The translations under genes and the position numbers were made by a program. A stretch of 64,000 bases of DNA from Escherichia phage 04086: the sequence record OR842557. One strand, written 5' to 3'. Each line of letters opens with the position of its first letter. The stretch's first letter is position 1. Of this stretch, positions 51,893 through 53,480 are shown in pieces. The notes beneath the pieces were generated by a model. That model was not told the DNA's origin. It was given only the letters and a program-made list of their open reading frames with translations, and made no database searches.

Positions 51893-52238
51893 GCCTAGTA
51901 AAACCGACCCTGGTTACGCATTAGCAGATTATGATATAGCTATTTCCTTATTCCTCGGCATTGCTACTAGTATGACTGCAGGGATAATTGGATTTCTTGT
52001 CGGTGGGATTATTAATGGTATGCCTCGCCATCCGTTTGAAGATATGAGCCTTGCATGGATTTGGGTTCCGGCTTTAATAGGATTTTTTATCCCATGGGTC
52101 TTTGATATTGCCCAAACTAATAAAATAAACAAGCCACGTAAAAAGAGATATGCTTTAGCTATGGCTAATTATAATGAGTATGTAAAACAAACTAAACGTA
52201 ATGACCTTGAAACCTTTATTAAGGAATGTAAATCATGA
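51885..52238 (+). CDS. Small membrane protein with C-terminal FIKECK tail
   Basis: ORF track 51849; ATG at 51885 after RBS agagg; two hydrophobic helices; C-terminus NDLETFIKECKS. Confidence 0.5.
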   Translation: MHKPSKTDPGYALADYDIAISLFLGIATSMTAGIIGFLVGGIINGMPRHPFEDMSLAWIWVPALIGFFIPWVFDIAQTNKINKPRKKRYALAMANYNEYVKQTKRNDLETFIKECKS

Positions 52239-52525
52239 ATAAAATTGAAATTGAAATCCCTGAATACAACAGCGCGCTGTCTGCAGAAAAGGCTATCTAT
52301 GCTCTTCTGAATAAAGTGAATACCATCGAACATGAATGTGAAGCCATTGCCGATAAGTATGGTATTCAATTCGGAACCGGTGATTATGGTTCAGGCCGTA
52401 CATATTATCCTGTCGGTTATGAATGCTCCCAGTGGTTTAAAGATGAAATTGAAAACAATGGCGGTGAAGTTGAAAACGGTGTCGTTACAGTTGGTGCTTG
52501 GGTCTCCTCTTCGGCAATGTGCTAA
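52235..52525 (+). CDS. Small protein, member 1 of tandem paralog family (C-terminal WVSSSAMC)
   Basis: 96 aa; coupled start; C-terminal W-V-S-S-S-x-x-C shared with the next four ORFs. Confidence 0.55.
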   Translation: MNKIEIEIPEYNSALSAEKAIYALLNKVNTIEHECEAIADKYGIQFGTGDYGSGRTYYPVGYECSQWFKDEIENNGGEVENGVVTVGAWVSSSAMC

Positions 52526-52534
52526 GGAAACGCT

Positions 52535-52816
52535 ATGATGAATGATTACCGTAAAAATAAAGAGCTGGCTGAAGCAGTAAATGATATTCATAAAGCTATT
52601 CGTCGTGCTGAGGAAATTGCTAACAAATATGAGACTCATTTTAATATATACCCTGCTCGCGGTATGGGCGGTGACTATTATTCTCCTGGCGCCCTGAAAG
52701 CCGACCTTGCCCACTGGGAAGAATACGGTGAAGCTCAGTACGCTATTGTAAACCAACATGATTACACTACCAGCCTAGAAAATGGTGGATGGGTATCCTC
52801 TTCTTCTGAATGTTAA
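52535..52816 (+). CDS. Small protein, member 2 of tandem paralog family (C-terminal WVSSSSEC)
   Basis: 93 aa; junction tgctaaggaaacgctATG; conserved C-terminal motif. Confidence 0.55.
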   Translation: MMNDYRKNKELAEAVNDIHKAIRRAEEIANKYETHFNIYPARGMGGDYYSPGALKADLAHWEEYGEAQYAIVNQHDYTTSLENGGWVSSSSEC

Positions 52817-52825
52817 GGAATTATT

Positions 52826-53023
52826 ATGTCTCGTGAACTAGATTGTGCAATCCGGACCGCTGCTGCGGCTATTGAAAACGTTATCCAGATTTGCAAAGAA
52901 GAACGTGAAGAAGCTGATATCTACATCGATGGTCAACGTGACCTGGAACGTCATATCACGCTTTATAACGGTTGTATTACTATTAGTGGTACCTCTTGGG
53001 TGTCCTCCTCTTACGAATGCTAA
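52826..53023 (+). CDS. Small protein, member 3 of tandem paralog family (C-terminal WVSSSYEC)
   Basis: 65 aa; conserved C-terminal motif and junction sequence. Confidence 0.55.
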   Translation: MSRELDCAIRTAAAAIENVIQICKEEREEADIYIDGQRDLERHITLYNGCITISGTSWVSSSYEC

Positions 53024-53032
53024 GGTAATAAA

Positions 53033-53245
53033 ATGACTATTGATGAAATTGAAAAACAAATCCGTGAATTAGTACGTAAAGGCCAGTCCGTGGCTGACGA
53101 AACAGGTGAAGAGTTCCATGTTTCTGGTCGTGGACAATACATTTCTCCAAAGAACCCGGAATATGATGATTACGAATGGGTCCGTGATGATTACGGCATT
53201 CCTGATGGTGATGGTTTCTGGTTTACTTCTTCTATGTCTTGCTAA
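53033..53245 (+). CDS. Small protein, member 4 of tandem paralog family (C-terminal WFTSSMSC)
   Basis: 70 aa; conserved C-terminal motif and junction sequence. Confidence 0.55.
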   Translation: MTIDEIEKQIRELVRKGQSVADETGEEFHVSGRGQYISPKNPEYDDYEWVRDDYGIPDGDGFWFTSSMSC

Positions 53246-53255
53246 GGAAATAAAA

Positions 53256-53480
53256 ATGTCTGATATTAATGAATTAGAAAAAGCTGCTCTTGAACTGGCT
53301 GCACTGTATAAGAAAGTAAAAGATATGGCTTCTGCCCAGGATTTCGGTGTTGAGCTCGATGATTATGACGGTGAAGTTCGTCTCGAAGATTGGCTGAATA
53401 GCTCTTGTTATGGTGAAGAAGCTGGTCGCACCTTCGTTGCTCAGGCCGATGGTAAAATCTGGTATCCGAGCTCATGCTAA
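53256..53480 (+). CDS. Small protein, member 5 of tandem paralog family (C-terminal IWYPSSC)
   Basis: ORF track 53106..53480 trimmed to ATG 53256 after tgctaaggaaataaaaATG; 74 aa; degenerate version of the motif. Confidence 0.5.
   Translation: MSDINELEKAALELAALYKKVKDMASAQDFGVELDDYDGEVRLEDWLNSSCYGEEAGRTFVAQADGKIWYPSSC

Follow-up and report, generated by a model that had tools for sequence, protein, structure and literature searches.

Small Cys-tailed proteins of an Escherichia phage are genetically linked to a predicted nucleotidyltransferase

Five consecutive genes on the plus strand of Escherichia phage 04086 (sequence record OR842557) encode small proteins whose bodies differ and whose C-termini are nearly the same, with Cys as the last residue (WVSSSAMC, WVSSSSEC, WVSSSYEC, WFTSSMSC and WYPSSC). 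The whole stretch analysed, referred to here as the window, is 64,000 nucleotides (nt) long. An original prediction, made from this sequence alone, had described the five open reading frames (ORFs), and they were found at the positions and with the C-termini that it gave (Table 1). It had also placed them in the hyperplastic early region of a T4-like phage, and this assignment is supported: the region is 98.5% identical to that of Salmonella phage vB_SalD_ABTNLS3 (ABTNLS3 below), classified as Dhakavirus (Straboviridae, Tevenvirinae), and 91-96% identical to those of E. coli phages QL01, MX01, WG01 and Bp7, which were taken as the same genus. The main clue to these genes, which that prediction did not contain, is that they are linked, in a conserved arrangement, to the gene for a predicted nucleotidyltransferase, here 0.9 kb downstream. 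This linkage is specific and spans unrelated phage lineages.

Five paralogs with a common Cys-terminated tail

The tail pattern in the five ORFs is far beyond chance. W-x(1-3)-S-S-x(0-3)-C-stop occurs six times in the six frames of the window, and five of the occurrences are the array genes. The sixth (41678-41704, minus strand, WQSSSLSC-stop) was set aside as a chance occurrence; it lies in an alternative frame within a 200-amino-acid (aa) gene and is not matched by the family profile. This profile, a hidden Markov model (HMM), matches all five ORFs at E 8e-9 to 1e-29 and nothing else in the window, and the common match bears out the view that the five are paralogs of one family. Their pairwise identity is 24-33%, and the positions invariant in all five are the initiator Met, one Gly, and the W, S, S and C of the tail. 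Member 5 carries the motif twice, as an internal DWLNSSC and a terminal IWYPSSC. Its mechanical ORF runs from a GTG at 53106, and all orthologs begin at the MSDINE... or MT... position.

Orthologs of the individual types are found in other genera. Klebsiella phage Marfa (Marfavirus) has all five types in a different order, types 1 and 5 are present in Karamvirus, two Aeromonas phage genera and E. coli phage WPEC2, and RB69 holds types 1, 2 (ORF137c) and 3 (ORF136c). The RB69 type-1 ortholog is frameshifted into ORF139c/138c (RB69 locus 3989-4295), either as a pseudogene or through an error in the reference sequence. The genes had been pictured as duplicated and diversifying cassettes, and this picture does not hold. 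Since identity is low, orthologs of each type exist elsewhere and the genes are under purifying selection (see below), the duplication is ancient and the copies are maintained; recent duplication and diversifying selection are both out, with ratios of nonsynonymous to synonymous substitution (dN/dS) well below 1.

A possible correspondence to the T4 ORFs e.2-e.8 had also been raised. The flanks are syntenic with this T4 interval; the array itself is additional to it and sits between the e.3 and e.2 homologs. No relative of the five was found by BLASTP among T4 e.2-e.8 or trna.2-4 (best E 0.07), nor did the family HMM find any member in the whole T4 genome (E<=1), so the proposed equivalence falls away.

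Translation, selection and gene junctions

The junctions between successive members read tgcTAAGGAaacgctATG, tgtTAAGGAattattATG, tgcTAAGGTaataaaATG and tgcTAAGGAaataaaaATG. They are made up of the Cys codon, a TAA stop overlapping a TAAGGA Shine-Dalgarno sequence, and then the ATG of the next member. The shared string TGYTAAGG[AT]A is exact or one base off at all four. This much of the proposed nucleotide-level conservation stands; the motif is missing after gene 5, which ends in tgcTAAaatt, and DNA-level repetition is limited to a 38-nt stretch over tail and junction (repeat family D1) with 63-74% identity.

The presence of this string at four junctions is what would be seen if the ORFs were untranslated and the shared tail were a repeated regulatory nucleotide element, combining stop and Shine-Dalgarno sequence. 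Several results refute this explanation, which is now hardly credible. dN/dS, calculated from 2-10 distinct Dhakavirus orthologs per gene, is 0.09-0.24 for the five genes, compared with 0.04 for the flanking e.6 homolog and 0.07 for the downstream enzyme gene. Tail codons vary across paralogs and orthologs (Ser TCC/TCT/TCG/TCA/AGC, Cys TGC/TGT, Val GTC/GTA/GTG), and because these changes are synonymous the tail is conserved as protein and not as nucleotide sequence. Furthermore, member 5 retains the tail without the junction motif, the tail is kept in ~300 clusters from unrelated phages in which the downstream sequence differs, and the predicted fold is confident (see below). Judged by their codon changes, the five genes are translated and under purifying selection.

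A family of small acidic proteins with a portable tail

Over their full length, the five proteins match catalogued families to which no function has been assigned, PHROG 899 for four members and PHROG 4882 for member 3. In keeping with the original prediction, searches for homology to a characterised family gave no significant Pfam, NCBIfam, PADLOC or PDB sequence match for any of the five. When 1.84 billion representatives were searched exhaustively with the profile, 297 clusters (50% identity) were recovered at E<=1e-3, every one of 70-150 aa, and the end of the profile is the end of the protein. Among the representatives listed, 139 of ~148 are Cys-terminated. These 139 have a median length of 85 aa and a median net charge of -8; W stands at -7 in 136, S at -4 and at -3 in 138 each, C at the terminus in all 139, and in 84 the terminal Cys is the sole Cys.

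The consensus C-terminus is [E/D]-G-G-W-[V/R/I/Q]-[S/A/P]-S-S-x-x-C, or in general form G-x-W-x-[S/A/P]-S-S-x-x-Cys-COOH. Ahead of it, the broader family alignment has a conserved N-terminal helix ending ...EAExIADExG, followed by an F and a Y-G-(M/S)-G-G-T-Y-x-P loop, and internal W-[E/D]-S-S repeats are frequent. An AlphaFold2 (AF2) model of member 1 has a predicted local distance difference test score (pLDDT) of 93.9, and the predicted fold is an N-terminal amphipathic helix packed on a small beta-sheet. No fold counterpart of this model was found in the PDB, and neither fold nor sequence resembles any solved phage anti-defence protein (sponges, mimics, anti-CRISPR (Acr) proteins and others).

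The tail had been regarded as a C-terminal Cys tag, and the same tail does occur on other bodies. Solitary proteins with a different body (MRVEQN...GGWQSSSYNC) are encoded away from the enzyme gene at three loci (L116, 6994-7197; L134, 2466-2672; L105, 518-724); two of these loci belong to genomes in which array and enzyme are encoded at another place. These solitary proteins suggest that the tail is a portable tag working in trans.

Linkage to the nucleotidyltransferase gene

The gene for a DUF7277+DUF7275 protein starts 884 nt downstream of the array end on the same strand. At the first seven loci, from six genera (the window, ABTNLS3, RB69, Cronobacter Pet-CM3-4, Klebsiella Marfa, Aeromonas phage 25 and Aeromonas AP1), a 300-330-aa enzyme is encoded within ~1.1 kb downstream on the same strand in seven of seven. 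In Aeromonas phage 25 the pair adjoins nrdD and not the e.3/e region. Type-5 orthologs adjoin the nucleotidyltransferase gene in Karamvirus, Aeromonas phages 25 and AP1, and WPEC2.

The linkage was surveyed from the enzyme side in 80 IMG/VR loci, which form 26 clusters at 70% enzyme identity. The small family, taken as one BLAST-linked cluster, is present in 23 of these 26 lineages, whereas the next commonest neighbour cluster reaches 4/26; in two of the three remaining lineages, divergent tail-bearing ORFs were seen by eye. There are 1-6 tagged genes per single enzyme gene. Further pairs occur in Pseudomonas Otagovirus phiPsa315 (5-6 copies), E. coli phage WPEC2 (3 copies) and Menderavirus (Stenotrophomonas Moby, 2-3 copies), and on contigs of 355-447 kb. 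In Moby the tagged genes lie downstream of the enzyme gene; in nearly all other loci they are upstream and on the same strand. Among 185,579 species genomes there were only five hits, all on contigs of metagenome-assembled genomes (MAGs), with the pair in all four complete loci.

As the converse test, IMG/VR was scanned with a DNA pattern of the tag, which returned 28 true members and four chance hits. The enzyme was present in 17 of the 20 member loci with enough downstream sequence. Of the three loci without it, two hold a solitary tagged gene whose product has a different body, the array and the enzyme being encoded elsewhere in the genome. T4 lacks both partners, the tagged genes as well as the DUF7277+DUF7275 enzyme. 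Its nrdC.3-nrdC.11 ORFs (275-340 aa; nrdC.11 is annotated as a nucleotidyltransferase) were considered as the missing partner and rejected, none matching the DUF7277/7275 profile. Because the linkage is too specific and too widespread for leftover synteny, the five genes and the enzyme gene are treated here as one module.

Proximity to tRNA genes was also considered as a clue to the role of the enzyme. Of 60 loci, 17 have tRNA genes within 6 kb (12 of 17 among L008-L032 and 5 of 43 among the later ones), and this feature, being inconsistent across lineages, was not used.

Nature of the partner enzyme

The DUF7277+DUF7275 family has more than 2,000 homologs. A Pol-beta nucleotidyltransferase signature, G6-S7 ... 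D25-x-D27 ... E69, is kept in 49 of 49 aligned homologs, in which K125, H128, H174, H194-D195, H198, E240-E241, E248-R249, Cys243 and Cys272 are also invariant; G6, S7, D25, D27 and K125 are invariant even in the actinophage homologs. K125 was assigned as the motif III Lys by reading and not by residue-level superposition. There is no invariant Asp at K125+15, the place of DUF1814 motif IV (an equivalence that is uncertain without superposition), and K139 and T140 are invariant there.

The AF2 model of the enzyme has a pLDDT of 92.7, and the structures closest to it are ANT(2'')-Ia (8.6), TglT/MenT3 (8.5), MenT4 (7.7), TM1012 (7.6), a Helicobacter pylori nucleotidyltransferase (NTase; 7.4) and LnuA (7.1). 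No sequence match was found to DUF1814/AbiEii (PF08843) or to the MenT chains in the PDB. Identity with the RlaP RNA-repair NTase (PF10127) was rejected, given that there is no Pfam match and that an RNA ligase is nearby only in Streptomyces phage Limpid. Since sequence matches to DUF1814, RlaP and other NTase families are lacking, the enzyme is called MenT/AbiEii-like in fold and not a member of that family. On its motifs and modelled fold, the partner is predicted to be an active Pol-beta-superfamily nucleotidyltransferase.

At position 272 (in KVCTSITSG), every enzyme that has Cys-tagged neighbours carries Cys, and the two actinophage enzymes without such neighbours carry Ile (window 54364-55320 compared with L088-L093 and L006), a pattern that might point to thiol or metal chemistry involving the terminal Cys. 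Co-variation of enzyme Cys residues with tagged partners was otherwise rejected and kept only as a hint, since Cys243 is Tyr in Moby and the sample is very small.

Proposed mechanism and alternatives

We propose that the small acidic tagged proteins are the multi-copy half, and the DUF7277+DUF7275 nucleotidyltransferase the single-copy half, of a phage-restricted two-component module. The tag would be the element by which the nucleotidyltransferase recognises the tagged proteins in trans. The enzyme would then modify the tag, by nucleotidyl or phosphoryl transfer to the hydroxyl of an invariant Ser, or possibly to the terminal Cys, and the diversified bodies would carry effector activities, presumably in early host takeover or anti-defence. 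A host-interaction or anti-defence role had been expected in the original prediction; it is plausible, though only suggested, by the acidic composition, the early region and the neighbourhood, including Acb1 (see below). The physical interaction, the modification of the tag, its chemistry and the biological role are what we infer, and the probability that the enzyme nucleotidylylates or phosphorylates the tail is put at roughly 0.4.

Several features favour the tagged proteins as clients, or substrates, of the enzyme. The tag is found on unrelated bodies, and solitary tagged genes occur in enzyme-carrying genomes. Type-5 proteins bear the motif twice, and the invariant residues of the tag (Ser, Ser, Cys) are nucleophiles. 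In addition, the enzyme's structural relatives all use a hydroxyl as acceptor, namely the tRNA 3'-OH, an aminoglycoside or lincosamide OH and, in MenT1 and MenT3, the enzyme's own Thr/Ser (PMC10435456, PMC11375011). Taken further, the system might tag proteins in the sense that the MenT-like enzyme nucleotidylylates, or primes nucleotide addition on, the Ser or Cys of a portable tag on acidic effectors; protein-nucleotide conjugates could then, for instance, imitate the 3' ends of tRNA or other nucleic acids and block host immunity or the control of translation. In this extended form the proposal is speculative and rather unlikely to be right.

The small proteins could instead be antitoxin-like regulators that bind, restrain or retarget the MenT-like enzyme, in the way that MenA1 (68 aa) acts on MenT1. 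An electropositive tRNA groove would be filled by the acidic body, with the tail as a pseudo-substrate in the active site, and together the two partners would be a phage toxin/antitoxin-like pair with tRNA 3' ends as its target. The gene for MenA1, a small helical protein, immediately precedes menT1; the N-terminal helix of MenA1 blocks the active site, and auto-phosphorylation is induced (PMC10435456, PMC11375011). The usual order of tagged genes and enzyme gene, the long conserved N-terminal helix and the strong acidity of the family fit such a regulator, which is nevertheless doubtful. Up to six diverged paralogs per enzyme gene, together with solitary tagged genes, are unexpected for a cognate antitoxin, and for this number of tagged genes a client or substrate fits better than one cognate antitoxin. 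The best-conserved part of the family is the Ser/Cys tail and not the helix, no likeness to MenA1 or AbiEi was found in sequence or fold, the Moby genes have the reverse order, and enzyme homologs without tagged neighbours exist.

Modification of the tag by the enzyme also has evidence against it. In the window, three unrelated small genes (53474-54344) part the array from the enzyme gene. The tail is fairly ordered in the monomer model of member 1 (W89 in the last strand; pLDDT 82 over the last 10 residues), so that it may belong to the folded domain and not stand free as a handle. Beyond DUF7275 and DUF7277, none of the 49 enzyme homologs gave an NTase Pfam match at E<=5, and proteins are not among the known substrates of the closest structural relatives, which act on tRNAs and antibiotics. 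No recognisable tagged neighbours lie beside the enzyme homologs of Streptomyces and Gordonia phages, so the enzyme can work without tagged proteins. The homolog in Bacillus phage G, gp205, is possibly another without a recognisable tagged neighbour; just upstream of it, gp204 (L093, 3160-3513) is a very acidic, helical protein of 117 aa that ends in ...EEETSSSW and is perhaps remotely analogous to the tagged family, though without the Cys. At one Tevenvirinae-like locus (L030, 4615-5567), seven tRNA genes occupy the usual position of the tagged genes directly upstream of the enzyme, and no tagged gene lies within 6 kb of it.

The intervening genes, the ordered tail, the solitary members away from the enzyme and the enzyme homologs without a tagged neighbour are all consistent with tagged proteins that hit host targets alone, as nucleic-acid mimics, as inhibitors of defence or of tRNA-targeting enzymes, or as thiol- or metal-dependent binders through the terminal Cys. 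The enzyme would then be a co-regulated neighbour in the same conflict, for example in tRNA-end repair, without contact with the tagged proteins. The median charge of the family, typical of phage mimic proteins, and the early hyperplastic location with Acb1 and tRNA genes point the same way. However, co-regulation leaves unexplained why linkage to the small family is found in 23 of 26 lineages against at most 4 of 26 for any other neighbour, through at least five genomic contexts or lineages, and why T4 lacks both genes, which makes fully independent effectors improbable.

The tail itself recalls a different chemistry. Four of the five tails have Ser(i)...Cys(i+3)-COOH spacing, which we take to resemble the termini of epidermin-type peptides that form aminovinyl-cysteine (AviCys). 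The tagged proteins could accordingly be scaffolds like those of ribosomally synthesised and post-translationally modified peptides (RiPPs), with S-x-x-C-COOH processed either by Ser dehydration and Cys addition or decarboxylation, as in AviCys, or by chemistry on the C-terminal residue as in the scaffold-peptide pathways of peptide aminoacyl-tRNA ligases (PEARLs), and a modified or released small molecule or peptide as the product. Several precursors per single enzyme gene is a RiPP pattern. Nonetheless, this is very unlikely: the neighbours include no LanB/LanM/LanD, radical S-adenosylmethionine (SAM), protease or transporter family, the domains of 65-100 aa are confidently folded and conserved over their full length, and conservation is reversed, with a constant 'core' and a variable 'leader'. 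To our knowledge, NTase-fold enzymes do not act as RiPP maturases. A module of tagged clients and a modifying nucleotidyltransferase is the reading we prefer.

Genomic surroundings

The early plus-strand block runs in the order gene 3, gene 1, 57A, 57B/Acb1, internal-protein genes, two tRNA genes, and then nudE and lysozyme e. Upstream of the array are homologs of T4 e.6, e.5 and e.3/e.4, and downstream, by the RB69 annotation, homologs of e.2 and nudE. A sigma-70-like site with 11 of 12 matches lies 5' of the e.6 homolog, and no terminator-like site was found on the plus strand between it and 55.3 kb. This arrangement makes co-transcription of the array with downstream genes plausible.

About 6 kb upstream of the array is a homolog of T4 57B, the anti-CBASS (cyclic oligonucleotide-based antiphage signalling system) nuclease Acb1, which carries the annotation 'RNA ligase' in the closest GenBank relative. 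With it, known counter-defence genes are present in the early block. The two tRNA genes, ~4 kb upstream of the array, are a remnant of the T4-type tRNA cluster. Of the three small genes between array and enzyme, the 79-aa gene has a counterpart immediately before the enzyme gene in RB69 (ORF135c), and it likely corresponds to a neighbour cluster present in only 4 of 26 lineages. A homing-endonuclease gene stands between nudE and lysozyme e; it looks like a recent mobile insertion, since in ABTNLS3 the nudix gene is followed directly by lysozyme.

Table 1 Coordinates of the array, its partner gene and surrounding features in the window
Feature	Position	Strand	Length (aa)	Observations
Member 1 (type 1)	52235-52525	+	96	Ends GAWVSSSAMC; YGSGRTYYP loop; phrog_899, E 6e-23; dN/dS 0.16
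Member 2	52535-52816	+	93	Ends GGWVSSSSEC; terminal Cys is the sole Cys; phrog_899, E 3e-20; dN/dS 0.24
Member 3	52826-53023	+	65	Ends TSWVSSSYEC; divergent body, same tail; phrog_4882, E 1e-36; family HMM, E 8e-9; dN/dS 0.09
Member 4	53033-53245	+	70	Ends GFWFTSSMSC; terminal Cys is the sole Cys; phrog_899, E 1e-13; dN/dS 0.17
Member 5	53256-53480	+	74	From the ATG at 53256; ends KIWYPSSC; phrog_899, E 4e-10; dN/dS 0.11
Junction of members 1 and 2	52520-52537	+		Sequence read directly
Similar junctions	52811-52828, 53018-53035, 53240-53258	+		Sequence read directly
Partner gene (DUF7277+DUF7275)	54364-55323	+	319	DUF7277, E 8e-27; DUF7275, E 2e-77; phrog_2141
Three small genes between array and enzyme	53474-54344	+	75, 116, 79	phrog_7065, 9796, 3723; without family annotation
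T4 57B homolog (Acb1)	45768-46223	+		Pfam PF23474, E 1e-58
Two tRNA genes	47915-48071	+		Met(CAT) and Arg(TCT)
Sigma-70-like site	50642-50670			11/12 matches
T4 e.6 homolog	50714-51307			dN/dS 0.04
T4 e.5 homolog	51356-51892
T4 e.3/e.4 homolog	51849-52238
Homing-endonuclease gene	57594-58346	+		HNH/NUMOD3

Significance and comparison with known systems

T4-like phages are the best-studied bacterial viruses, and about half of their early genes are without function. Here, five orphan genes become one testable unit, in which a portable, nucleophile-rich tag on small acidic proteins is coupled genetically to one nucleotidyltransferase. Both the small family and the enzyme are already catalogued, only as unknowns (PHROGs and DUFs), and literature searches found no paper on the small family, the DUF7277/DUF7275 enzyme, the tag or their linkage. 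What is new is the linkage between tagged genes and nucleotidyltransferase, which points to an undescribed two-part phage system and not to five unrelated orphans. The module ranges over Straboviridae, Otagovirus, Menderavirus, the unclassified ~160-kb E. coli phage WPEC2 and viral contigs of 350-450 kb, and its near-absence from cellular genomes, together with its absence from T4, may be the reason why it was overlooked.

Modification of the tag by the enzyme, if it occurs, would add a new system of viral protein modification and give the MenT/AbiEii fold its first protein substrate. Should the tagging proposal be true in its extended form, it would define a new class of viral post-translational modification module and a new class of substrate for that fold. 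Regulation of the enzyme by the small proteins would mean that a MenAT-like module targeting tRNA is carried by lytic phages. Either outcome bears on the conflict between phage and host over translation.

The closest comparison is with the MenAT/AbiE systems. Nucleotide addition to tRNA 3' ends is the activity of the MenT enzymes. Upstream antitoxins, one of which is the helical MenA1 of 68 aa, keep them under control, and the enzymes can also transfer phosphate to their own Thr/Ser (PMC10435456, PMC11375011). By motif and model, the phage enzyme appears to share with them the Pol-beta motifs (hG[GS] ... DxD, third carboxylate, Lys) and the overall MenT fold, but it is without DUF1814 sequence membership. 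The phage small proteins are unrelated to MenA1, MenA3 or AbiEi-type antitoxins. Their genes come in 1-6 copies and share an invariant W-x-S-S-S-x-x-Cys-COOH tail that is found on other bodies too, and the phage module is essentially phage-restricted, its five loci among the species genomes all being on MAG contigs.

Other known systems share single elements with the module. In the MntA-HepT (MNT-HEPN) type VII toxin-antitoxin system, a minimal NTase encoded beside a small protein AMPylates a side-chain hydroxyl of that protein. The concept of an NTase encoded next to a small protein partner is thus shared. However, none of the five phage proteins gave a HEPN Pfam match at E<=1, their predicted fold of helix and beta-sheet is without a PDB match, the phage partners exist in several copies, and a C-terminal Ser/Cys tail takes the place of a Tyr near an RNase active site as the candidate acceptor. 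ANT(2'')-Ia and LnuA act on small molecules without partner proteins and have no sequence similarity to the phage enzyme, whose conserved helical domain is much larger and has invariant His, Asp and Glu residues of its own. PHROG 899 and PHROG 4882 contain the same proteins as bookkeeping clusters without function, and literature searches brought up neither the tag nor the linkage to phrog_2141 (DUF7277/7275). Thus, compared with MenAT1 and MntA-HepT, the module is set apart by its restriction to phages, a multi-copy partner with a new predicted fold, and a Cys-terminated signature tag.

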